From a virus, in IMG/VR virus record IMGVR_UViG_3300031521_000012, positions 32,001 through 96,000 of that record: a DNA stretch of 64,000 nucleotides; one strand, written 5' to 3'. Position 1 is the stretch's first letter, and each line of letters opens with the position of its first letter. The position numbers and the translations under genes are program-made. Below the pieces are notes generated by a model. That model was not told the DNA's origin. It searched no databases and saw only the letters and a program-made list of their open reading frames with translations. Of this stretch, positions 31,818 to 45,491 are shown in pieces.

Positions 31818-32417
31818 TCACTCATAGTTTATACTAGCTGAATAGAAATTCATTGCTCTCATGATTGTTTCATTATGATTGAAAGCCCATTCATAATTCT
31901 TTTGCTTTGTTATGAAATCAAAATAGTCAACCCACTTTACCTGTGCTGTTTCATGACATACGAACTTCTCAATATCCAACGGAAACAATTGCATATCATT
32001 GCCAATATTATAAACAGATACATATAGCAATGATACGTTTTGATGCTTATCGGTGTTAGGATTATCTCTTACTTCAAACGGATGCTTGTCGTTATTAAAG
32101 ACCCGATACTTTTCAAAGTCCCATAAATTTAACGATGTTTCTTCATGGACTTCACGGCACATTCCATCATAACCAGTCTCGTTCCAGTCCAAAAAACCAC
32201 ATGGAACTCCCCATTTTGATGCTTCATCACGCATTTTATTCGACCTTTGTGTTAAAAGCACATATGTATGACCAAGAAGATCAATGAAGAATACTACACC
32301 AACAACAGCAGGTGCTCTTGAAATCCAAAAATCTAGATTTGTTGCAATACCGTTATTGCATTGATAATAAACTTTAATGCGTTCGTTTGGAACATTATTA
32401 AACTTTGGCTCGCTCAT
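31818..32417 (-). CDS. Nudix hydrolase
   Basis: Nudix box GFLDWNETGYDGMCREVHEETSL. Confidence 0.85.
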   Translation of the reverse strand: MSEPKFNNVPNERIKVYYQCNNGIATNLDFWISRAPAVVGVVFFIDLLGHTYVLLTQRSNKMRDEASKWGVPCGFLDWNETGYDGMCREVHEETSLNLWDFEKYRVFNNDKHPFEVRDNPNTDKHQNVSLLYVSVYNIGNDMQLFPLDIEKFVCHETAQVKWVDYFDFITKQKNYEWAFNHNETIMRAMNFYSASINYE

Positions 32418-32626: not shown

Positions 32627-33211
32627 TCAGACCTTAACACTACTTTTAGTAATCGAGTTTCCATTTTTTCTTTCTTTAATAATTTTTTCTTTTAAGGTAA
32701 AAATCCTCATAGTACCTAAGCGAGCTATTCTAAACTGTTCAGCTTCAGTTAGTTTTCTAGCACCTTTGATTTTCTTTGGTGTACGTTTGATATGTGCCCT
32801 AACCATTTCAATCTTTTTGTAGTTTAAATATCTTTCACATACTATAATTCCTGCATGTTCAGGTATTAAATCAATGCACTTGTCAATTAAATCAATTGGC
32901 ATTGCGTAATAAAATTCGGATATTCTATGCTGTACATCAATATGCTGATGATTTTTTTTAAGGTCAGCCATGAAATCAGACTTACTGATTTTAATTTCAA
33001 TCTCAACAGCCAATCCACTTTTTTTAATTAAAAACATATCACATTCATGCATTCCTATAAGTCCCCATGATATATTAGGCACAATTATATTCTTTCTCAC
33101 ATCAAAGAGTTTAGCAATAGCTACCTCAATTTCAATAGTTTTTATTGGTGCGTTAATAGTTGAGGTTATTACAGCTTTCTTTGATTTTACCCTTTTGGGT
33201 TGTAACATCAT
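32627..33211 (-). CDS. PD-(D/E)XK (MmcB-like) nuclease-fold protein
   Basis: ECDMF...EIEIKISKSDFMAD...FYYAMP...PEHAGII. Confidence 0.7.
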   Translation of the reverse strand: MMLQPKRVKSKKAVITSTINAPIKTIEIEVAIAKLFDVRKNIIVPNISWGLIGMHECDMFLIKKSGLAVEIEIKISKSDFMADLKKNHQHIDVQHRISEFYYAMPIDLIDKCIDLIPEHAGIIVCERYLNYKKIEMVRAHIKRTPKKIKGARKLTEAEQFRIARLGTMRIFTLKEKIIKERKNGNSITKSSVKV

Positions 33212-34102: not shown

Positions 34103-34648
34103 TTATGCCAATTTTTTATCTTTCAATAATTCACGGAGAAATGCGTTCTTAACTCCACCGATTAATCGAATCCATTGTTTATAGCATTCGCTATATTCGG
34201 TTTTTAATGATTCCAAATCTTTTATTCTAATTAGAACAGCATCCGATCCTTGAAATTCATAATTTTCAATAATATGATCTTTAAAATCAGGATAATCCTT
34301 TTTATTAAATACTCTTTCATCAACAAGGAAGCACAAAGAAGTTAAAGAATTATTCAAATCTGGCTCACGAAAATATGTGAAATTAATTCCGTTAGCATTC
34401 AGCGAATCACCTATTTGATTCAAGCTACCTAATGGATTTCCTTCAATATCAAGTTCGTCATTTGTTGTTCCACCGTTAAGAATTATCCAAGTTTTCCAGT
34501 TCAATATAAAATCTTTATATTCATCAGTATTGCCATAGGCTAAAGCATAATCTAATGCTGCATGACCTGATTGAATTCCTTTATGCACTCCGCCAAGTTG
34601 GTAGATAACAAAGAAATACATTCTAAGTTCCAATAATTTATCTTCCAT
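34103..34648 (-). CDS. Pth2-like peptidyl-tRNA hydrolase
   Basis: MYFFV..L.G..KGIQSGHA, TWIILNGG, FREPDL...TSLCF. Confidence 0.65.
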   Translation of the reverse strand: MEDKLLELRMYFFVIYQLGGVHKGIQSGHAALDYALAYGNTDEYKDFILNWKTWIILNGGTTNDELDIEGNPLGSLNQIGDSLNANGINFTYFREPDLNNSLTSLCFLVDERVFNKKDYPDFKDHIIENYEFQGSDAVLIRIKDLESLKTEYSECYKQWIRLIGGVKNAFLRELLKDKKLA

Positions 34649-34811
34649 GTTTATTGCTTTTATGTTTTAATACGTGAACGATGAATAGCAATAGAATACA
34701 TACTATTGAGAAAGTAATTACTCCTAAGAATTCTCCTATAGCTTCCATCGTTCAAATTTACTTATTATAATTCGTTAATCCTATGATTTCTCAATTTAAT
34801 TAATGGTTATT

Positions 34812-34844
34812 TATTATACGTTAATGAACATAGTTTTGTTACAA
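34812..34844 (-). promoter_or_regulatory. phage ECF-like promoter; its TTGTAA doubles as the Leu-stop of 34839-35273
   Basis: TTGTAAC-N17-CGTATAATA. Confidence 0.75.
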
Positions 34845-35276
34845 TAAATTAAATTTTTTCTTGAAAAAACTTATATAATACAGATAATGACCACTTTGGT
34901 CTCTTTCCATATAAGTAACGTCATAACCGATTCTAATTAAAAACCGTATGATCTCGCTATCAAGGTCTTTAGGAAATGGAATATATATTGATCTGCGCAA
35001 AGGGTTTCTCGTTCTGAATGACTTAATTGCATTTAAGATTCTTCTGATCTGATCGTGTCTTTGCTTTCTCATTGCAGTTTTAAATACCTTATCTTGAAAG
35101 TCCAAAAAATTTACATGCTCAAATTTTTTTCTTTCAAATAATTCAGGAGTCAGTTGTTCTAATAACGAAATCCTGAATTCTTGTGTTGCAGGTGTAAAAA
35201 CGGTATAACCATCATTAGGATTTCCTTTAACGATTATACCGTTTTTAATATATTTTAATAATTCTTTATTCATGGG

Positions 35277-36104
35277 TTATAGATTATCAGGAATTCTTGA
35301 CATTAGAAAATCTTTTTCTATTGTAAAAACAGGTGGCTCAACAACTAACCACTTACTACGAAGATAACTACCATTACTAATTCCATCATCATTAGCAGGT
35401 AAAGTCCAAAGAAGTTCTTGCTTTTCGATAAACCTTCCCTGTTTATACTTAATAGCGTAATCGTCCCAATTTATGCCCATTTCAAGCACCATTTCCTGCT
35501 GTTTGGTAACGTTCTTACCATTGAGTTCATTGTGACTGAAAATGCTCTGTGCAACGCTAGAAACGCTATTTCTGATAGTATCTCTTTGCCTAGCAATGAA
35601 GTAATTTGCAACTTCTGACTTAGCTGGAACAGTAAATACACGTGAATCAAATTCAGCTTGCTTTAACTTGGCTGCATCTAAGAACCATGTCCAATTAATT
35701 TGATCAGTACCATTATTATATCTTTCAACATAAAATCTATTTGTCCTTAGTTGATTGAATTTAGAAGTTGCCATGCTTGCTGAAATACTACAGATTTTTT
35801 GTATATTTCCATCAAACCAAGCATCTGTTTCAATTTTTTCAAAGTCAGTCATTAAGATTGATATTTCGTCTGACTGAACAAAAGCAAATTTAGCACCCTG
35901 TATATTTTTACATAAGTAAATTGCTGTTTCATCCATATCATTCATTAAGCCATCATCAAATGGCTTTTTTAAATTCTTACTATAAGAATGAAAGGCTTTG
36001 CCGTCTAAACGTATGATACTGAACGCTCTACGTGGAAGAAAAGACTGTGTTCTGCTTTCATAGTTCTCCTTCATTCTTGTCATTACTTGATCTTTCATAA
36101 TCAA
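35277..36104 (-). CDS. thg1: tRNA(His) guanylyltransferase / Thg1-like 3'-5' polymerase
   Basis: IIRLDGKAFH, FVQSDEISI, WFDGNIQK, FDSR, NYFIARQRD..RNS. Confidence 0.92.
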   Translation of the reverse strand: MIMKDQVMTRMKENYESRTQSFLPRRAFSIIRLDGKAFHSYSKNLKKPFDDGLMNDMDETAIYLCKNIQGAKFAFVQSDEISILMTDFEKIETDAWFDGNIQKICSISASMATSKFNQLRTNRFYVERYNNGTDQINWTWFLDAAKLKQAEFDSRVFTVPAKSEVANYFIARQRDTIRNSVSSVAQSIFSHNELNGKNVTKQQEMVLEMGINWDDYAIKYKQGRFIEKQELLWTLPANDDGISNGSYLRSKWLVVEPPVFTIEKDFLMSRIPDNL

Positions 36105-36566
36105 TTATTGTTTTATGGTTTTTAAATGTATTATCTTAGTCACGTCATTATACAGTTCGATTTCAATATCAGCTAGGTTATCCAAATAATCAAATAATGA
36201 AAATTCATTTATTTGGATTTCACTACGGAAGTCTTTGATCTTTTGCCTATTGATATATACAACCTTGCACTCCATTATTTTGTTATATATCTCGCAATTG
36301 TTTTTAAATAATTTTACATACGCAGGATTTGTTTCGTTTATCTTAACAATAACACCATTGCCATGTACCCAATATTTAAAATCGCCAAGTTCTAAAAGAT
36401 ATCTATCATAAACTAATGGTTTACCCAAAACCTTTCTTTTATCTCTATATGATATTTTTTTTGTGGTAATTTTCTTGATCATTGGAAATAAAAATCCAAC
36501 AGTTTTCTCCAGAGAACCATCGGAATTTACTTTAGATAACTTTGCAAGCATATTTTTAATTAAAAA

Positions 36567-36615
36567 TGTTGGTTATTTTCAATGATTCATTATGTTTTAT
36601 TGAAAATAACCAACA
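36567..36615 (-). terminator. 17-bp perfect hairpin after the RNA ligase (terminator or processing site)
   Basis: TGTTGGTTATTTTCAAT / ATTGAAAATAACCAACA followed by U5 on the minus strand. Confidence 0.6.
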
Positions 36616-36626
36616 GATCACTATTT

Positions 36627-38747
36627 TTATTTGAAATGTTCTTCGTTCTTTTCTTCATCGAAGAAATATTGTTTAGCTATTTCCGAAATGTATTTTGCAA
36701 CATCTTTTAATTCAAATCCAGCATCAGTGATAATATCGATATCTTCTTTAACTACATCAGTAATAACCATTTTCATGTAATCGCCCATTTTCTTTCTATC
36801 AATATATCCACCATTCAATAAGTCACAGGCTTCGGTAAGCATTTGTGATAACCTCCATGATGGCGTTACTTCGTCAGCTAATTCTCTCAATGCAGTTATT
36901 CTTTCAGTGTCAACCTCATGAATAACCTTTACTTTAGAGTTTGAGTGCTTCAAGCCTTTGGATTTGAACGTATAACGATTATCGCTATCATCATAATAAG
37001 AAAATACCAGCCCTTCCCCAACACCACTAACGCCAAAGTATTTTCCAATAGGACATTCATCTTCAACCTCTAACGTTAATTCAACTATTCTATTTTGAGC
37101 TAATTCTGGTTGATTAAAATCAACCTCGACTTCATATGTTTTAAATTGAAGTATGTTATAGATTTGTTGATCGTTAATCATTAGATGTTTGAAGTTCTCA
37201 ATGTCCTGATATGCACCATCAATTCTAACTGCAAATATGATAAACATTTTAGGTAGTTGAGCAATAGCAACACCCTTTTGTATGGAAGAATTATGTACCA
37301 ACGTATAATTTGCAAAATAATTATGATTATCCTCCACCTCTATATCATATTTTACTTTCAACCATTCGTTTACTGGAGTATAGCTTTCAATATCTAATAT
37401 ATTTGCTTCAATTATGGATTTATCGTAATCATTTAAATAATGCTTCCACCAAGTTATTTTTTCGACTTGTTGTAGGATAGTTGGTAGTTTATAATTAAAG
37501 CTGGTAATTACATATGGTGCAATTGTATATAAAAAAGATGCAGCACCTTCAACAGTAAATCTAATATCATAACTAAAATCATTATTATTTCCAGTATTAC
37601 TGATATTACAATAATAGCCATGAGAATTAAACCAGTCTTTAATCAGTTCAACATTTTTACGTCCAAATCCTTGACAATGTAAATTACATCTATATTGTCT
37701 ATTTCTTCCATTATGATTAATAATCGACCCATCATCCATATACCAAACAGCTAATGCTAGAGGACTTAACTTGTTTAAATAGTCAACAGTTACTTGTTTT
37801 GAAGTAGAATTGTTTAAATGTAGTTCATCATATAAATCGGTTATTTCTGGAAATGCTTTAGTGGAAAAAAATTTCATGTTACTTCCATGACCGCTAATAC
37901 CTGTTCGTGGTTTAGTAAAGATATTTGAAAAATTTTCCTCTATAAAATCATTATAATGCTTTTGTTTATCATCTGAATGAGATATGGTGATTATATTTTT
38001 CTGTAAAAATGAACCATCACCTAAAATAGTTCCCATTAAAAATTGTTTAATGTTATGAGCTAGAACCTTTCCATTTGTAATTAATTTATCATCACATTTC
38101 AATTCAGAAGCAAATTTTTCGAGTATTATATTATCTTCAATAACAAAAAATTTATGATTAGGAGTGGTGGTAACACCAGTGGATTTTCCACCTCTTTTTC
38201 GCCTTTGAATATTAATTTTCAGCCAATCATCTGTCTTCCCGTTATTATACCAATTAATAATTTTTTTCGGCTCAAGAATTCCGCTATCGAAATTATATGA
38301 CATTACCTCAACAGCTAATTTTTGATTAACAATTTTACCGATAGGCATTGTAGTTCCATCTGATAATAATATTGGTGTTTGGTATGAAAAACACCCAGCC
38401 CATTCTCCGTAGATAACACATGATTCGTTGAATTCGATATTATCGAAAAGCTTTTGATAATCCTTTGAAAGCATTGCTGCCATAAATCCAGCGTTATCTT
38501 GAGTAAGACTTAGTTCACGTTCTCTTGATTGAAAGGAATAATATGGAATATTTAACTCGTTGATATACTTGCAGATGGCAGAATTTGTTCCATGTGCTTT
38601 TACTGTACCTCTGAATTTTAGCTTAGGGTATGACTCTTTATGTAAATAAATTGCATCACCATTTTCATCTTTTCCTTGATAATCATGTGTAGATTTAACG
38701 TTATGAATGACATTTCTAAACTGTCCTATTTCTGTAAATTTTTTCAT
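36627..38747 (-). CDS. rnl2: Rnl2-family RNA ligase interrupted by an intein (338 aa after splicing)
   Basis: Motif I KAHGTN, QSR, motif III IYGEWAG, IQKG, FIIFAV, motif IV GEGLV, motif V FKSK. Confidence 0.85.
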   Translation of the reverse strand: MKKFTEIGQFRNVIHNVKSTHDYQGKDENGDAIYLHKESYPKLKFRGTVKAHGTNSAICKYINELNIPYYSFQSRERELSLTQDNAGFMAAMLSKDYQKLFDNIEFNESCVIYGEWAGCFSYQTPILLSDGTTMPIGKIVNQKLAVEVMSYNFDSGILEPKKIINWYNNGKTDDWLKINIQRRKRGGKSTGVTTTPNHKFFVIEDNIILEKFASELKCDDKLITNGKVLAHNIKQFLMGTILGDGSFLQKNIITISHSDDKQKHYNDFIEENFSNIFTKPRTGISGHGSNMKFFSTKAFPEITDLYDELHLNNSTSKQVTVDYLNKLSPLALAVWYMDDGSIINHNGRNRQYRCNLHCQGFGRKNVELIKDWFNSHGYYCNISNTGNNNDFSYDIRFTVEGAASFLYTIAPYVITSFNYKLPTILQQVEKITWWKHYLNDYDKSIIEANILDIESYTPVNEWLKVKYDIEVEDNHNYFANYTLVHNSSIQKGVAIAQLPKMFIIFAVRIDGAYQDIENFKHLMINDQQIYNILQFKTYEVEVDFNQPELAQNRIVELTLEVEDECPIGKYFGVSGVGEGLVFSYYDDSDNRYTFKSKGLKHSNSKVKVIHEVDTERITALRELADEVTPSWRLSQMLTEACDLLNGGYIDRKKMGDYMKMVITDVVKEDIDIITDAGFELKDVAKYISEIAKQYFFDEEKNEEHFK
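37290..38393 (-). mobile_element. intein (368 aa) with LAGLIDADG endonuclease
   Basis: Starts CFSYQTPILLSDG; TPNH block B; MGTILGDGS and LAVWYMDDGS; ends YDIEVEDNHNYFANYTLVHN followed by Ser. Confidence 0.93.
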
Positions 38748-38770
38748 AATAATTGTGTTATATTTTAATG

Positions 38771-38845
38771 TGATGAATAAAGGAATCGAACCCTTGTTCT
38801 CCCAACATCAAGTCGGTGTATCCTATCCGCTTAGACGAATTCATC
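38771..38845 (-). tRNA. tRNA-like RNA A (Glu/Gln-type body, non-canonical anticodon arm)
   Basis: Acceptor GATGAAT/ATTCATC, D loop TAAGCGGATAG, T arm AAGGG-TTCGATT-CCTTT; anticodon arm CCGAC-TTGAT-GTTGG out of register. Confidence 0.7.
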
Positions 38846-38853
38846 ATTTATTA

Positions 38854-39162
38854 TTAATCAACAATATATTGATCATCATTAATAATTTTAATTCCTTCCA
38901 ACAATTGAATACTGTTAGAATCAATAATTGCAAGAGTATGTGGATGATGATTTTCAGCTAAATATTTCATTGAGAAGCTGAATGCATCAGCAAATGTCAT
39001 TTTATTAATTTTATCCATAACAAATGCCATGAAACATGCTTCTTCTTGCTCAGCTTCTTCTGCATTTAGTGGACAAGCATCTGATCTTCTTTGCCAAAAT
39101 TCATGCAATAGATTTGGCAATTCGTTTACGTTAAGTGATGTAATATCTTTATTAGGGTTCAT
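38854..39162 (-). CDS. hypothetical protein (102 aa; start corrected to MNPNK so as not to overlap the tRNA-like RNA)
   Basis: ATG at 39162 with an A-rich leader. Confidence 0.55.
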   Translation of the reverse strand: MNPNKDITSLNVNELPNLLHEFWQRRSDACPLNAEEAEQEEACFMAFVMDKINKMTFADAFSFSMKYLAENHHPHTLAIIDSNSIQLLEGIKIINDDQYIVD

Positions 39163-39179
39163 ATGTGTTTTATTTATTT

Positions 39180-39253
39180 TGGGGGGGAGTATGGGATTCG
39201 AACCTATATTTGCTACTTTTGGCTGCTGTCCTTTCCAATTAGACGAACTCCCC
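39180..39253 (-). tRNA. tRNA-like RNA B (C discriminator, encoded CCA, 5-nt anticodon loop)
   Basis: Acceptor GGGGAGT/ACTCCCC + C + CCA; D arm GTC-TAATTGGAAAG-GAC; GCAGC-CAAAA-GTAGC; T loop TTCGAAT. Confidence 0.75.
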
Positions 39254-39261
39254 ATTGTTGT

Positions 39262-40191
39262 TTATAATATTCTCATTAGATGTAATCCTTCTTCTGCAAT
39301 TCTTATTTGTGTAATAACGTAGTTTCGAGTAAGTGAAACAAGTAATTGATCAGCGCCACGTTCTTTCCACGCAACTAACTTTTCGTTGTATTCGTTTCTC
39401 AATAACTTTAATAGATATAATTGATGATCAATTATAATATCTTCATAAATTATAAGGTGCTCGGTAGATTCTATTCTTGTATGTAAAATCAATTTATATA
39501 CCCTGTTAAAGTTACTTATAAATGTTTTAACATAGTCACGTTTAGAACTTCTTGGCATGGCTGTTATGATCTCATTTATATGATCAATAACGGCATTTTG
39601 GTTACGATTCGTCTTCATTTTCATAATGTGTATCCTTTCTTACATTTATAATTTCTTCTTTAACTTTCCGCCATGTTTCTATGTGATCAATAACTGATGT
39701 TGATAAATCACCCATTACGATTACACTATTCAAATCACTGAACGATTGAAATAGATTAATTATTTCATTAACAGCAATTAATGCATAGATTACTGAGAAT
39801 CTTTTATATCCACAAACAGAATGAAAACTTTCAATTAGTTCATCAGCCTTTTCTTTCGGTGTTAGTCCAGTAACATTTCCAATTGTTATGCTCATAATAT
39901 TTCTCTTGTTTCAATTTCTACTTTAACCTCATTCCAAAAATCAATATCTGGATTTTCGAACATTGCACATCCATATCCAGTAGCTGTAACCAATTTTGGT
40001 AGTGCATTAATTATGTGTTTAACTGCAATCAATGCGAAATTTCTTGTATCGTTAAGATGTTTAGTTCTGTCCCAATCATCGAATTTCATTCCATTAACGG
40101 AAACAATAGTACCTATCTGTGGAATTTCCATGAAAAAATCATGAATTAATTCATCAGCCATTTCTTTTACCTTCTTTTCTTGATCTGTCAT
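39262..40191 (-). CDS. three hypothetical ORFs; 39602-39895 and 39892-40191 are paralogs
   Basis: KEKADELI/KEMADELI, ALIAV and W-x-x-VK-x-EI shared. Confidence 0.65.
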
Positions 40192-40202
40192 ATTGTTTTT
40201 AA

Positions 40203-40727
40203 TTAAAAAATCATTCCAATTGTTAATCCACTACCATTACTTGAGCTAAATCCACCGAAAGTAATTGGATTGAAACTCGTTTGTGATATAAACTTGATTG
40301 ACATTCCCAAATTCGGATGCCACCCTCTATATATAACAGGCTGTTGATTATCGTTTATTCGCATAGTTGTAACATTTGTCATTCCAAACGTAGCACCAAT
40401 CATAACACAATTAGCTAAATTATAGCCTAAAAAAACATTGGTTGCTATATTATCACTTAGCTTTGGCTTGATTGGATTATGTGTAACTACACCAAACGAA
40501 CCACCATAGATAAATCCACTTTTGGTAATGTAGTTAACATCGACCTTAGTTAGATTTTCAAACAAGTGTTTATAAAATATGCCTTGTCCGATACTTACTT
40601 CAAATGCTGGTTGTTCAATAACAGTACGAAGACCATAACCACCCATAATACCTCTGCTGTTCCAATCACATTGCGCTTGCGATGTAAATGATACAAATAA
40701 TAAGATTACCAATAATAACTTTTTCAT
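40203..40727 (-). CDS. secreted, probably outer-membrane beta-strand protein
   Basis: Signal peptide ending SQA-Q; alternating Gly/aromatic strands; C-terminal Phe. Confidence 0.6.
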   Translation of the reverse strand: MKKLLLVILLFVSFTSQAQCDWNSRGIMGGYGLRTVIEQPAFEVSIGQGIFYKHLFENLTKVDVNYITKSGFIYGGSFGVVTHNPIKPKLSDNIATNVFLGYNLANCVMIGATFGMTNVTTMRINDNQQPVIYRGWHPNLGMSIKFISQTSFNPITFGGFSSSNGSGLTIGMIF

Positions 40728-40750
40728 GTTATGTGATTTTAATTTTTTAG

Positions 40751-40879
40751 TAATTGGAGCAGGACTCGAACCTACATATATCTGTAACCAACCATCCAGT
40801 CGATAAACCCGATTTAGCCCAATAGATGATTCATTTTATAGGGTTTAGTCAGGCGTGTTTACCATTCCACCATCCAATT
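40751..40879 (-). tRNA. tRNA-like RNA C (Leu-type body, 36-nt anticodon loop, long variable arm)
   Basis: Acceptor AATTGGA/TCCAATT; TG-GTG-GAATGGTAAA-CAC; stem CCTGA/TCGGG; T arm GTAGG-TTCGAGT-CCTGC. Confidence 0.75.
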
Positions 40880-40888
40880 AACAATTTA

Positions 40889-40988
40889 TGGTTTGAATTG
40901 CATCGAGTTTCAGTGTACGCTAGCTAATTACGCAATTTGTTTATACTGACTTACCTCAAGAATGCGCTTCTTGTCTGCAATTCTACCA
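40889..40988 (-). ncRNA. candidate ~100-nt multi-branch RNA
   Basis: Closing stem GAATTGCA/TGCAATTC; hairpin CAAGAA-GCGCA-TTCTTG; stem TCAGT/ACTGA; ends ...AAACCA. Confidence 0.5.
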
Positions 40989-41381
40989 CAATATTTCTTT
41001 TGCTTTTAATGCTTTTTCAATATCAACAATTAAATAATAATCAAAGATTGACATTGGATAAGTCGTTATGAATTTCATATGATATCCTGTTAATACGTTG
41101 CCCTTTACTTGCATATCACCAATGATTACTAACTGATGATTTGCTCGACCACCTTGACCAAATACAATTGGGTTGTTCCATTTTTTGATATGTGTGAAGT
41201 TGTATTTACCTTTCATTGGAACGCCAACTCTTATTGTATCACCAATATTATACGTGTGTTTTGCTTCACCAACATATGATACGTAATATCCTTTTTTAGT
41301 TAGTTCACCAAATTTGACTACTTGTGCGTTAACGCTAGATATTGCCAATAGTAATCCGATTAATAGTAATAGTTTTTTCAT
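40983..41381 (-). CDS. secreted hypothetical protein
   Basis: Signal peptide MKKLLLLIGLLLAISSVNA-Q. Confidence 0.65.
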   Translation of the reverse strand: MKKLLLLIGLLLAISSVNAQVVKFGELTKKGYYVSYVGEAKHTYNIGDTIRVGVPMKGKYNFTHIKKWNNPIVFGQGGRANHQLVIIGDMQVKGNVLTGYHMKFITTYPMSIFDYYLIVDIEKALKAKEILW

Positions 41382-41397
41382 TTTGTTTTTATTTTAG

Positions 41398-41553
41398 TAA
41401 CCGAGATAGGATTCGAACCTATATTTTATGTACACTTAAACTTCACCAGAACGCATCATCCGCCAATAAATGCTTCACATTTCGGCTAACGTGGAGAGGC
41501 TACGACCCTACTCTTCTTTCAGTGAATGCGACTACCAATTTCGCCACTCGATC
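41398..41553 (-). tRNA. tRNA-like RNA D (75-nt structured insert in the anticodon loop)
   Basis: Acceptor GATCGAG/CTCGGTT; GCG-AAATTGGTAGT-CGC; stem TTCAC/GTGAA; T arm ATAGG-TTCGAAT-CCTAT. Confidence 0.75.
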
Positions 41554-41565
41554 ATTTTATTTCTG

Positions 41566-41754
41566 TGATTGAAACTGGACTTGAACCAGTACTTTATAGA
41601 CTTTCGACTGCCTAATAAAGATTTTTCGGACTACTTGAACATGCACACTTTCTCGGCTGTTCTCTCTCGTAAAGATTATTAGTCCTTACCATTCCCGCAG
41701 AACGTTACTTGCGGTCATTTCATCCTAAGCGTTTACCAATTCCGCCATTCAATC
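41566..41754 (-). tRNA. tRNA-like RNA E (~100-nt structured insert in the anticodon loop)
   Basis: Acceptor GATTGAA/TTCAATC; GCG-GAATTGGTAAA-CGC; variable arm TAGGC/GTCTA; T arm ACTGG-TTCAAGT-CCAGT. Confidence 0.75.
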
Positions 41755-41765
41755 ATTTTATTTAG

Positions 41766-41939
41766 TGAGGATGGGTAGTCTCGAACTACCATTTTATTGC
41801 GACTCGTCAGTCACGCACCCATGTCATCCTCTTTCAGATTATGTGATCTGCATCATCACAACACCAATTGATTCACTCATGGTTTCCTTGACTCTTTCTG
41901 GCAGTCAAAGATGCTTTTTCCCATTTAAGCTACATCCCC
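41766..41939 (-). tRNA. tRNA-like RNA F (9-bp/9-nt anticodon arm, ~94-nt variable region)
   Basis: Acceptor GGGGATG/CATCCTC; TA-GCTT-AAATGGGAAA-AAGC; TCTTTGACT/AGTCAAGGA; T arm GGTAG-TTCGAGA-CTACC. Confidence 0.75.
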
Positions 41940-41951
41940 GATTATTTTTAT

Positions 41952-42132
41952 TATTGAATGGAACTGCATTTGCACCTTGCACCGATGGTCATAGGACACT
42001 CACAAAATCTCGATATAATTGTTTGCCTTTTGCTGCCATCTTACGTAGAACTCGAAACCACGATGTTATATCCATCCTTCTTGCGTAGCAATTCTTTTAC
42101 CTTGATTAGAGCATTTACAGTTCCATCCAATA
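41952..42132 (-). ncRNA. unknown 181-nt RNA closed by a 17-bp terminal helix
   Basis: TATTGGATGGAACTGTA / TGCAGTTCCATTCAATA is fully paired with two G-U on the minus strand only; inner GATATAA/TTATATC. Confidence 0.7.
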
Positions 42133-42139
42133 ATTAATA

Positions 42140-42442
42140 TTATGTAATTTTTTTATATATGTTAAATTCTTTTAATTTTCTTTCATGATAACCCTGAACT
42201 GTTCGGTCAGGATTACCTGTTTTAAGTGCGATATCGGCTTTAACTGTATTGTAAGTTTCATCATCGCATAAAACTTCTTCAGGTGTGCTATATCGCCAGT
42301 AGAGATCATACGATTCATGATTTCTCGACTCAGCAATATGCCTTTGCATATCTTCAAGAGTAAGCGAAAATATAATACCATCTGGTCTTGAACCCCAACC
42401 CGCTTCGTATTCTGTGCAATATGATAAAAACAATATGTTCAT
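42140..42442 (-). CDS. hypothetical phage protein
   Basis: 100 aa; EYEAGWGSRPDG motif; directly after a promoter. Confidence 0.7.
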   Translation of the reverse strand: MNILFLSYCTEYEAGWGSRPDGIIFSLTLEDMQRHIAESRNHESYDLYWRYSTPEEVLCDDETYNTVKADIALKTGNPDRTVQGYHERKLKEFNIYKKIT

Positions 42443-42456
42443 CTTGTTCCTTTTCT

Positions 42457-42489
42457 TATTATACGTATGAGGGTAGTTAAATGTTACAA
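42457..42489 (-). promoter_or_regulatory. phage ECF-like promoter heading the RNA array / RNA ligase unit
   Basis: TTGTAAC-N17-CGTATAATA; next copy downstream is at 34812. Confidence 0.8.
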
Positions 42490-42533
42490 AAAATCACAAT
42501 TTTTTTAATAATAATGAAAATAATTTAATTTCA

Positions 42534-42792
42534 AGTATTTATGTTAAAGTTCTTTGATATTGTTGGTTGTTGTTGGAAAACTTTAACAACATAAAATCAA
42601 AAAAGTAATATAGTTATTATATTGACAAGACATTAATAATCATTAGTGAATCAAATTAGTAGTCAATTATTAAATAACAATTAAATGCAATTCTAAAGTT
42701 TAATTACAATAGAATAGTGGGTATGGTAGTTTACCTATTAGTTATAAAACTAAAAACTAATTTAATTTAGAAACTATGAGTTAGTACTTTTG
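42534..42792 (+). ncRNA. candidate plus-strand structured RNA starting at a late motif
   Basis: AGTATTTAT at 42534; stems 42542-51/42579-88, 42601-07/42785-91, 42715-23/42732-40, 42756-64/42777-85 with G-U pairs favouring the plus strand. Confidence 0.5.
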
Positions 42793-44108
42793 TTACAAAA
42801 TATCCAACTTTTTTTCAATTTCTTTTTGATTAATAATAGCATCTTGTTGTGCTGTTATTATTACCTGATCTAAGTGACTCCCAATCACTCTTTTATCAAA
42901 CCAACCAACAGTACGCTGCCTTTGATAATACAATGACAATATGCTGTTTAATAGCAATAGCTTATCATGAATTTCTTTATCAAGTATTGAATTTGACTCA
43001 ACCAAATCATATTCTACAACCTCTAAATAGCTCATGTCAACATGTGGAAGATTATGATTATAATAACTAATCACATCCTCTTCTGTTGCATCACCACGCA
43101 TTAAATCAGGTGTCTCGCATGTTCCTAAGAAAACTTTTCCACCTAATTCAAATGATTTGGCAAACTCTTTAGTTTCTTTAAATCTTAATACTTTAACCTT
43201 CATGATAATAATGATTAGAACTTACAACCTTTTCATGACAATTCATGCACTCAAATTGATACACTTGTGGCTCACCAGCTTTAACAATTGTATACTCAGT
43301 ACCATCAGCTAGCTTATGTGTATTTGAGCTAAGATTTCTATAGTGTACATCACCACCACAATGCTTACACGTATATACATAGTGTTCAAAGCATCTAGGT
43401 GTGCCAAGTAATACTTTATCGTTCTTACCAACAAACCAAATGTTTTTAATACCCTTGGTTTCGTATGTGAATTTTTCATTACAATCATTGCACTGGCAAG
43501 AAGTAATTCTATGATTCATATCTTCACCAAAGTAGCCAACTAATGTTGTTGATGTGCTACCTTTCGAATATTTTTTGATTCACAATATGGACAGAATAAA
43601 CCCTTTTCATATAGAGTCTTGTCGGGTCGTTCTGTTACTAATTCTAAGAATTCGTTCATTTTCCTACGTCTTTAATTAAACATTTAATTAATCGCCTAAT
43701 ATGATTATATTCGGGTGTATTACTTAATTTTTCGTTTAATTCATTGTTTAAATCATTACAAAGGCTATTTGCAAATCTTTCATTTAAAATCAGTCTGCTG
43801 TATTGCCACCATATACCAAAGCTTCTTTTTTGAACTAAATAAACATTGGTTAAATTAAACAGCTTACATCTTCTATCTGATATTTTTTTTACCCTGAACT
43901 TACTCATTTTTAAATTTCTTATATTCTTCATTTAATGAATTACATAACGTAGTAATAAATTCTTTATCGCACATTCTATTACGATAATTTCAATAGATGC
44001 CAAATCGTCTAATTTGAATTTGATATAACGTATTAATTCCATAGATAAAATCAACGCCTACCATTGTTATCTTATTTCTAGTTACTATTTTAACTCTATA
44101 CTTATCCA

Positions 44109-45491
44109 TTATAGCAGGGATGATGATTCGTTAATTTCGATACATTCGGCTAAACTATTGGCACTGCTCTTATCTGTTCTCAGATGCTTAAACACTGGAT
44201 GTAACACAGAATAATTTCCTTTGTTATCTTGCGATAAGCCCGAACATTTAACCTCAACGATGCCATTCAATAGCTCGGACTGATGATCAGTAAGATATTG
44301 CATATCATCTTCATTAATGCCTGTTGGAGAAGTCTTTAATAATCCTTCTTCTGATTCAACATTGATTGATGATATTAGTGAGATATTTTTACCAGTACCG
44401 TAATTGAAGCCAGTGATTCTCAGATCAAGATTAATCTCTTTTTTTACTTTGATTTGGTACGATGGTTTACTATCAACCCAAACACCATCCATTGACTTAA
44501 CAACAGTACCTTCACCACCACGCTCAGATACCTCAACGAAATGCTCCATTACTTCTGCAAGTGTTGATACTATTCGTGTTTCAACAACCGATATCATATT
44601 GAATCCCTTTAATGTATCATCCAGTTTTTTCAATCTTTCACCATATGGTCTGCTGCATTTTCTTGTAAAGTATTCATCAATAGTCAACATATCCCAAGCA
44701 GTAAACCTTATTAGTTCCAATGCTTTATAATATGGCATATGTCTGCTTTCAAATTTATCAATATCTTTTGATGCATCAGCTCCACTGTTCTTCTTTGTTG
44801 CAATACTAATCAGCGAAGCAATCATACCATTCGCATCGAACCTACTTATTTCGTTGCCCATAGTCAGCTCCCCATTTAACACGCAATCAGGTAATTGTAT
44901 TAACTCCGAAAAGAATAATGGATTTTCTAATATAGTGGGCTCACCTTGTCGTGATTCATTAGTTAATTCGCCACCTTGAACGACAGCATTTAAATAACGT
45001 CCATCCATTTTTTCTTGACTATAACATGCGCCTTTAGCCAATAGTTTTTCAACCAATTCTTTTGAAAATGGTTTGCACCCCATGTAACCAGTTTTTTCGA
45101 TTAGATCAGGAAATACTCTGTTAATCATACGTGTTCCTAAACCGATCTTACAATCTTTTTCAATAATACGCTCAATAATATATGCTGAATCAACATCACA
45201 AGAATCAAGAATATCACTTAACCATGAAACAGCATTACCACCTGTAACGTCTCTACTACTTAATGCACGTAATCGATCAATTCCCCATTCCAAATTTGAA
45301 TCATTTCCACGTATATTTTGCTTAATATATGATGGGATTTGCTTAATATAAAACTTAACACGCCTTGAGCAAGCTAAATACAACACTTGTTTTAGCAGTT
45401 CATTATCCTTATACTTTGTTAGTATTTCGATTTTAGCATTTGTTGATGATTCATTTGAGATTTCATCAAAAATTTGTTTTATCGTGCTCAT
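44109..45491 (-). CDS. lig: ATP-dependent DNA ligase
   Basis: QEKMDGR, SRQG, VLNGEL, FTAWDML, GEGTVVK, IKVK, C-terminal OB fold with HPVF..LRTDK. Confidence 0.93.
   Translation of the reverse strand: MSTIKQIFDEISNESSTNAKIEILTKYKDNELLKQVLYLACSRRVKFYIKQIPSYIKQNIRGNDSNLEWGIDRLRALSSRDVTGGNAVSWLSDILDSCDVDSAYIIERIIEKDCKIGLGTRMINRVFPDLIEKTGYMGCKPFSKELVEKLLAKGACYSQEKMDGRYLNAVVQGGELTNESRQGEPTILENPLFFSELIQLPDCVLNGELTMGNEISRFDANGMIASLISIATKKNSGADASKDIDKFESRHMPYYKALELIRFTAWDMLTIDEYFTRKCSRPYGERLKKLDDTLKGFNMISVVETRIVSTLAEVMEHFVEVSERGGEGTVVKSMDGVWVDSKPSYQIKVKKEINLDLRITGFNYGTGKNISLISSINVESEEGLLKTSPTGINEDDMQYLTDHQSELLNGIVEVKCSGLSQDNKGNYSVLHPVFKHLRTDKSSANSLAECIEINESSSLL

Follow-up and report, generated by a model that had tools for sequence, protein, structure and literature searches.

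Six tRNA-shaped RNAs lacking a standard anticodon arm upstream of RNA ligase and Thg1-like genes in a putative Bacteroidota jumbo phage

In engineered tRNA scaffolds a cargo RNA replaces the anticodon arm, and the elbow secures processing and stability. In the MALAT1/mascRNA module a tRNA-like acceptor/T structure sets RNA ends via RNase P and RNase Z, and phage T4 makes stable RNAs of about 120–140 nt, species 1 and 2 (rnaC/rnaD), that are co-transcribed and processed with its tRNA cluster. Here an array of six tRNA-shaped RNAs (named A to F) and two further RNAs (X and Y), lying upstream of genes for an RNA ligase and a Thg1-like protein, is described from IMG/VR virus record IMGVR_UViG_3300031521_000012. 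The window analysed was the 64-kb stretch of bases 32001–96000 of this 167,971-bp record, and coordinates refer to it unless given as genome positions. Lak megaphages carry 'enigmatic' tRNA introns (Devoto et al., 2019, PMC6784885). Plant mitochondrial t-elements are tRNA-like processing signals (PMC1920247), and the bacterial Y RNA-like YrlA is a tRNA mimic in Rsr/RtcB RNA-repair operons (PMC4201824).

The Lak introns resemble the array in that oversized tRNA genes of huge Bacteroidota phages carry non-ribozyme inserts, and one Lak case, a tRNA-Tyr(GTA), shares its ancestry with element C. Lak genes keep an assignable anticodon and a single insert, whereas the elements described here mostly have no recoverable anticodon and no ortholog-conserved anticodon arm, and their inserts reach 100 nt or lie within the variable region. 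YrlA is likewise a non-decoding tRNA-mimic noncoding RNA beside an RNA ligase operon, but it has a permuted topology, its ends lying on the Ro-binding stem, and needs Ro60; PF05731 (TROVE, Ro60) was absent here and no Rfam Y-RNA match was found. The t-elements and MALAT1/mascRNA share a non-decoding tRNA-like acceptor/T structure that defines RNA ends; these are single and eukaryotic or organellar, whereas here full elbows with inserts stand in tandem in a phage operon beside RNA-repair genes. T4 species 1 and 2, likened by description and not by sequence, are also phage-encoded stable RNAs of a phage that encodes RNA ligases, but T4 carries normal tRNAs too. Engineered scaffolds have the same layout as the shells of the window but are of artificial design, and a natural counterpart is not established. 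The literature search, which also met with a survey of RNA repair in jumbo phages, yielded no description of a class of anticodon-less tRNA-shell RNAs, and blastn of the array against deposited phages gave no match; 'undescribed RNA system', the term used in an earlier sequence-only reading of the array, was judged fair.

The record (CheckV completeness ~51%; G+C about 30.7–30.8%) probably derives from a jumbo phage of Bacteroidota, because the signal peptides of two open reading frames (ORFs) of the array end in ...AQ and relatives show TAnnTTTG-type -7 boxes. To pass the strict elbow scan, run on both strands of the window, a sequence had to pair all 7 bp of the acceptor stem, show GG in the D arm and close a TTCRA loop with a T stem of 5 bp. 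Exactly six elements were returned, all within 3.2 kb on the minus strand (38771–41939); a relaxed version of the scan was discarded for excess noise. Each has the 7-bp acceptor stem, the GG D-loop and the TTCRA T-arm. Acceptor stems are perfect in 6/6 and T stems in 5/6, B having one T-stem mismatch. A standard anticodon arm was found in 0/6, none showing the 5-bp anticodon stem, 7-nt loop, U33 and purine 37 of a tRNA. Loops at the anticodon position of A to F measure 5, 5, 36, 75, ~92–100 and 9 nt, and F adds a 94-nt variable region. ARAGORN reported A alone by default and all six (38770–41939, minus strand) with introns allowed and a lowered threshold. The Rfam tRNA model (RF00005) was passed at its gathering score by A, B and C (36.6–41.2 bits), and D reached 33.4 bits in E-value mode; elements bearing inserts were picked up less well by the generic tRNA covariance model (R1) than by the pattern scan. 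Apart from tRNA, no Rfam match was obtained in the array region, weak C/D-box matches (E 0.29–3.8) being dismissed as AT-rich chance matches. The elbow-bearing RNAs without a normal anticodon arm were confirmed, and so, on direct reading of the sequence, were the loop and insert sizes that the sequence-only reading had given for them.

All elements are on the minus strand. Element A (38771–38845; 75 nt) ends 23 nt before the ligase ATG and can be drawn with a 6-bp stem and a 5-nt loop, or with a bulged stem and the loop CUUGAUG; only via this bulged stem and a U37 does it fit a standard anticodon arm. B (39180–39253) comprises 71 nt plus an encoded CCA, with a 5-nt loop and C73 (Rfam tRNA 37.2 bits). 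C (40751–40879; 129 nt; Rfam tRNA 41.2 bits) carries a 29-nt hairpin insert between U33 and N34. In D (41398–41553; 156 nt; Rfam tRNA 33.4 bits) a stem TTCAC/GTGAA encloses 75 nt. E (41566–41754; 189 nt) has a type II D arm and an insert of about 92–100 nt, and F (41766–41939; 174 nt) a 9-bp stem with its 9-nt loop at the anticodon position besides the 94-nt variable region. D, E and F are spaced 11–12 nt apart, and gaps between elements and ORFs are 8–25 nt. RNA X (41950–42133), a rod with a closing helix of ~19 bp, ends 14 nt ahead of F; neither an Rfam match nor a homolog was found for it. Spacer RNA Y (40880–40982), with an 8-bp closing helix, ends just before C and is a weakly supported candidate.

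Fold z-scores were obtained by comparing minimum free energy (MFE) with that of shuffled sequences. F (z -3.39) and X (MFE -50.5 kcal/mol, z -2.89, 0/200 shuffles equal) fold beyond shuffles; C, D, E and Y (z -0.55, not significant) fold no better than them. The proposal that the inserts are base-paired was only partly supported, by F and X and, through covariation, by the insert hairpin of C, and not by D and E. The middles of the elements are mutually dissimilar (all z<1.4), in keeping with the earlier statement that they are unrelated, and have a G+C content of 37–42% vs a genome mean of 30.7% (~95th percentile). IMG/VR exact searches with the 3′ halves of E and F gave no match. The motif GAAAG was enriched in anticodon-position loops (5/26, P 1e-4), the motif having been picked post hoc. 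The CUGACGAG string in F was considered and rejected, since it belongs to a plain hairpin. ARAGORN found no tmRNA, and G3:U70 occurs in no acceptor stem. No canonical tRNA was found in the 168-kb contig, on which the strict scan returned, beyond the six, a seventh element and one probable false match. The seventh lies outside the window (genome 6757–6830, plus strand) in its own short promoter-to-promoter unit; it has 74 nt, a 5-bp stem, a 6-nt loop GAAAGA and the trailer A-CTA.

Relatives were fetched with a Thg1 query, yielding 57 viral and 80 metagenomic loci (L-numbers) at 40–63% identity. Near relatives (Thg1 54–63% identical) have one tRNA-shaped element of 90–220 nt directly upstream of the RNA ligase, and only distant ones (L033–L035) have arrays of ordinary tRNAs, located upstream of Thg1 and on its strand. 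Two families of elements were distinguished. Family 1 has the acceptor GATTGGR, A73, and almost invariant acceptor, D and T arms around unrelated middles of 79–167 nt that share neither sequence nor an anticodon arm. Family 2 has the acceptor GCGTRGG, U73, an anticodon-position hairpin with a 4–8-nt loop, and a long irregular variable arm that ends in an invariant G-UGCA-C tetraloop hairpin. In a sequence-only MAFFT alignment of 11 family 2 members, 96% of cells are paired and 12/21 pairs show double changes; 0/500 shuffles match the observed pairing, and slid controls gave 39–51%. A kissing palindrome at GGUGCACC was ruled out, covariation in L075, L099, L008 and L012 placing it in a short stem that closes the UGCA tetraloop. 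A YU-NNN-R loop is present in nearly all of 24 ordinary tRNAs of distant relatives vs about 2/26 odd elements.

The flanks of the elements are those of tRNA genes. U-1 is found in 22/26 odd elements (P 1e-8) vs 19/24 ordinary tRNAs of related phages, and C74 in 26/26 (P 2e-20) vs 21/24. Taking odd and ordinary elements of the strict scan together, C stands at position 74 in 47/50 and A at 76 in 40/50, and a full CCA is rarely encoded; the C-N-A trailers (CGA, CTA, CAA) suggest that the phages of this clade follow a common rule for 3′ maturation. The presence of such RNAs at the same spot in related phages points to selected non-decoding tRNA mimics. As judged by sequence comparison, selection acts on the elbow and on the processing signals, and not on decoding. 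The sequence-only reading had argued for selection rather than decay from the window, and dozens of related phages now bear this out: their same-locus elements have acceptor, D, T and variable-arm helices that are conserved and covary, and anticodon positions that depart from the canonical form; its caveat that relatives might carry ordinary tRNAs with non-covarying inserts was not borne out by the near ones. Elsewhere, a 72-nt element at L258:12186–12260 (minus strand) shares acceptor, D and T arms with D, a 6-bp stem and 5-nt loop replacing the 75-nt insert. It sits 5 nt after an ordinary tRNA-Met, and short-loop tRNA shells thus occur also in an unrelated 60-kb phage contig.

In relatives the element is flanked by conserved RNAs. 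Among the 84 loci with enough upstream sequence, 39 have a conserved RNA of ~150 nt that starts with an invariant CGA, 1–17 nt after the discriminator. It has covarying helices and invariant GAUAAC, UGCC, AGGAAAG and AAACCUAA, and ends in a terminator (hairpin plus U-run) just before the ligase start codon, a layout that appears riboswitch- or attenuator-like. An RNA of ~230 nt, with AGUCUUUCUG/CAGAAAGAUU as its closing helix, lies upstream and runs up to the 5′ end of the tRNA-like element. The composite module can be seen at L002:7504–8030, L084:4150–4670 and L097:6650–7200, plus 36 further loci. Two different PF09414 ligase families alternate behind it. Neither flanking RNA has an Rfam match, and neither was found in the genome of the window phage with nhmmer profiles, the best match (genome 109.7 kb) lying in coding sequence.

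Element C has a usable homolog at L007:7455–7583, to which it is 81% identical. All tested pairs are kept (29/29); three of the changes are compensatory and four one-sided, and one of the compensatory ones falls inside the insert hairpin (CCC/GGG vs GCC/GGC). Two more compensatory changes, in the D stem, were read by eye. In both, the exon halves CCTGA-CT and (C/G)TAAA-TCGGG surround the 29-nt insert. The joined arm of L007, CCUGA-CU/GUAAA-UCGGG, is a 17-mer found unchanged as the anticodon arm in 104 or more ordinary tRNA-Tyr(GTA) genes of IMG/VR. Because of this identity C is, by sequence, a tRNA-Tyr derivative split between U33 and N34. Its hypothetical joined loop would be CU-CUA-AA, reading CUA. 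The 33/34 junction is the one resealed by T4 ligase after PrrC cleavage.

The RNA ligase gene (36627–38747, minus strand) encodes a probable Rnl2-type protein (PF09414) with the KxHGxN-type motif present as KAHGTN. It scores 23.7 bits, below the cut-off of 27, because its domain is split by a LAGLIDADG intein of ~368 residues (about 119–486; nt ~37290–38393, minus strand) inserted after GEWAG; same-locus ligases of relatives score 50–51 bits. Over their full length the exteins can be aligned with the 333-aa ligase of L005, which has no interruption (54–69% identical, orthologous); the 286-aa ligase that most relatives carry is related to the window enzyme only distantly. A phmmer search gave no PDB relative. 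In L004 and L009, homing endonuclease genes (LAGLIDADG, GIY-YIG) lie between ligase and Thg1, which marks this locus as a hot spot for mobile elements. The Thg1-like 3′-5′ nucleotidyltransferase (35277–36104, minus strand) was confirmed with Pfam (PF04446, E 1.8e-27, 96.2 bits vs a cut-off of 29.2). Pth2, the third protein named in the sequence-only reading, was not: PF01981 (PTH2) had no Pfam match in the contig or in three candidate proteins. The candidate is a 181-aa hydrolase (34103–34648, minus strand; phrog_3668) that stands behind a separate copy of the promoter at 34842 and is retained downstream of Thg1 in 48 loci (tblastn). The ESM Atlas placed it in a viral cluster in which 11% of members have PF01981, with TM 0.55 to eukaryotic PTH2, a remote, fold-level lead to a possible PTH2-like enzyme. 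Outside the window, a giant ORF of 2370 aa (genome 135743–142888, minus strand) contains a CCA-adding module (PolyA_pol head, RNA-binding, tRNA_NucTran2_2); its C-terminal domain is 2H phosphoesterase/Acb1-like, and it matches GNAT weakly. With the ligase, the Thg1-like protein and the CCA module, the phage owns tools for the loops, 5′ ends and 3′ ends of tRNAs.

A phage-specific promoter motif, GTAAC-N17-CGTAT, resembling those of extracytoplasmic function (ECF) sigma factors, heads the array at 42461–42487 (minus strand). In the 168-kb contig, TGTAAC-N16/17-ACGTAT occurs in 45 copies, with the strand always following gene direction; 18 copies fall in the window, over 2200–52563 (16 minus, 2 plus). 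After the minus-strand copy at 42487 the next stands only at 34842, in agreement with the earlier claim of a single heading promoter with no copy before Rnl2 and Thg1. No convincing intrinsic terminator was found inside the unit. For these two reasons ORF100, X, F, E, D, ORF132, Y, C, four small ORFs, B, ORF102, A, the ligase, a 148-aa ORF, the Thg1-like gene and a 144-aa ORF plausibly form one transcription unit.

The anatomy is best fitted by one option of the sequence-only reading, scaffolding and processing. Tentatively, and as something possible rather than probable, the elements are regarded as tRNA shells that are processed, do not decode and serve as scaffold or punctuation. The six shells would be made within one transcript of ~7.6 kb from the promoter at 42487. 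They retain the features read by end-processing and repair enzymes, namely U-1/G+1, the D/T elbow, N73-C74 and an acceptor stem of 7 bp. Their excision would fall, as for tRNAs, to host RNase P and the 3′ processing pathway, and the CCA end would be completed, possibly by the phage CCA-adding domain. Excision would also segment the polycistronic RNA, leaving, for instance, rod X at the end of the ORF100 mRNA and Y at that of the ORF132 mRNA. The anticodon arm would be dispensable, being capped in A and B, extended in F, and replaced by lineage-specific structured inserts in C, D and E, and the remodelled arms would leave the products unable to decode. The freed L-shaped RNAs may be stable scaffolds that display their inserts, and may act in trans. 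A processing joint would be expected to look like the arrangement in relatives (39/84), where the element stands between two structured RNAs and 1–17 nt from the downstream one.

Several observations speak against such shells. The middles of D and E fold no better than shuffles, and A, B, D, E and F are without sequence homologs usable for a covariation test. F, E and D are three tandem copies with no ORF between them, more than punctuation alone needs. The conserved D arm and the UGCA-capped arm of family 2 indicate a further function, because RNase P and RNase Z need little beyond an acceptor/T minihelix. The halves of C rebuild a perfect tRNA-Tyr arm, which suits splicing more than a scaffold. 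Under splicing, some or all of the elements would be real tRNA genes with protein-spliced introns, an endonuclease removing the insert and the Rnl2-type ligase resealing the exons, and C would become a tRNA-Tyr-type amber suppressor (CUA). The exact placement of the C/L007 insert between U33 and N34, the covarying hairpin in that insert, the perfect 5-bp stem that flanks the D insert, and the encoded RNA ligase, Thg1-like, CCA-adding and 2H phosphoesterase modules all agree with this, and Lak megaphages offer their 'enigmatic' tRNA introns (PMC6784885) as a parallel. Yet A, B, F and the seventh element offer no 7-nt loop to restore, and orthologous family 1 elements conserve no anticodon arm. 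The intron and anticodon assignments of ARAGORN were rejected as forced fits because clear homologs receive different anticodons (Cys, Gly, Gln). No bulge-helix-bulge motif could be drawn by inspection of the array sequence; EndA (PF01974) and RtcB are absent from the contig, which covers ~51% of the genome; and the group I core RF00028 had no match in the contig, nor in 38000–43000 at E<=5, the inserts being 29–100 nt vs the 200 nt or more usual for group I introns. No recoding of TAG, TGA or TAA is visible (coverage 0.847 under code 11; TAG = 16/206 stops), and in IMG/VR an insert-bearing Tyr arm was found in the L007 contig only. Introns, also proposed in the sequence-only reading, are hence credible for C and disfavoured as a general account, and ligase-dependent splicing of some or all elements, chiefly of C, is on balance unlikely.

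No better placed is action of the shells in trans, akin to the decoys of the sequence-only reading. As mimics that can be neither cleaved nor decoded, they would soak up readers of the tRNA body, for example defence nucleases by which the host targets tRNA, while in relatives they could serve as a damage sensor gating the ligase operon; we regard such action as improbable. It would account for the conserved elbow with a capped or hypervariable anticodon domain and for the linkage to a full tRNA-repair toolkit. Also in its favour, the leader terminator of relatives directly precedes the ligase ATG, leaving no room for another promoter, and two ligase families alternate behind the same RNA module. 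The tRNA-mimic YrlA RNAs of Rsr/RtcB repair operons (PMC4201824) provide a precedent. Against mimicry, the window phage has no downstream leader RNA or terminator, and some relatives are without any element: in L011 the ORF100 homolog is followed directly by the ligase, with no RNA element between. The known anticodon nucleases recognise the anticodon loop, the very part that is missing here. The lack of an element in L011 would also suit decaying remnants of an ancestral tRNA array without function of their own, as would the ordinary tRNA arrays upstream of Thg1 in the distant relatives, the unrelated middles, and the unexceptional stability of those of D and E. Decay is nevertheless most unlikely, since perfect acceptor stems in 6/6 and T stems in 5/6 stand beside aberrant anticodon arms in 6/6; homologs covary, flanking signals are retained, middles are GC-rich in an AT-rich genome, and elements are conserved across Thg1 identities of 54–63%. 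A broader proposal is that of an undescribed tRNA-shell class in Bacteroidota jumbo phages, functionally coupled to the ligase/Thg1-like module. Its members would either undergo ligase-dependent, non-ribozyme splicing at 33/34, with C giving an amber suppressor, or serve as body-only mimics, sensing or soaking up nucleases directed at tRNA and, in relatives, controlling ligase expression through the downstream RNA and terminator. We consider this proposal doubtful. As a whole, the observation of the sequence-only reading was confirmed and its interpretation partly supported.

Seven small ORFs, absent from that reading, are interleaved with the RNAs, all on the minus strand. ORF100 (42140–42442; 100 aa) opens the unit; its homologs in L100, L011 and L124 immediately precede a tRNA-like element or the ligase. 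ORF132 (40983–41381; 132 aa) has a signal-peptide-like N-terminus. Four small ORFs occupy 39262–40727, namely a 174-aa protein like an outer membrane protein (OMP), with a signal peptide, and proteins of 99, 97 and 120 aa. The signal peptides at 40203–40727 and 40983–41381 are of lipoprotein or secretion type, with one weak match to an OMP beta-barrel, and these may be envelope or superinfection-exclusion proteins. The overlapping neighbours 39602–39895 and 39892–40191 are paralogs, both phrog_21441. ORF102 (102 aa) is at 38854–39162. Further down, the 148-aa ORF (36105–36551, minus strand) is not conserved in relatives, and the 144-aa ORF (34839–35273, minus strand) is the last gene of the unit. 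Immediately upstream of the unit lies an ATP-dependent DNA ligase (44109–45491, minus strand), and downstream a NUDIX protein (31818–32417) and an MmcB-like nuclease (32627–33211). The promoter motif is dense, one every 0.2–1.5 kb, in genome 4.6–23 kb, suggestive of an early region under the control of a phage or ECF-type sigma factor.

The tRNA genes of phages are usually explained by codon supply or by replacement of tRNAs cut by host defences. This phage and a clade of relatives keep the tRNA body and discard the anticodon, beside menders of tRNA loops, 5′ ends and 3′ ends. Relatives add two conserved structured RNAs outside Rfam that flank the element, the downstream one riboswitch-like before the ligase gene. 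As processed scaffolds, the elements would be a natural counterpart of engineered tRNA scaffolds and an instance of tRNA punctuation within the operon of a phage. As spliced RNAs or as mimics, they would provide a native RNA partner for the long-unexplained Rnl2-type ligases and the Thg1-like proteins of bacteria and phages.

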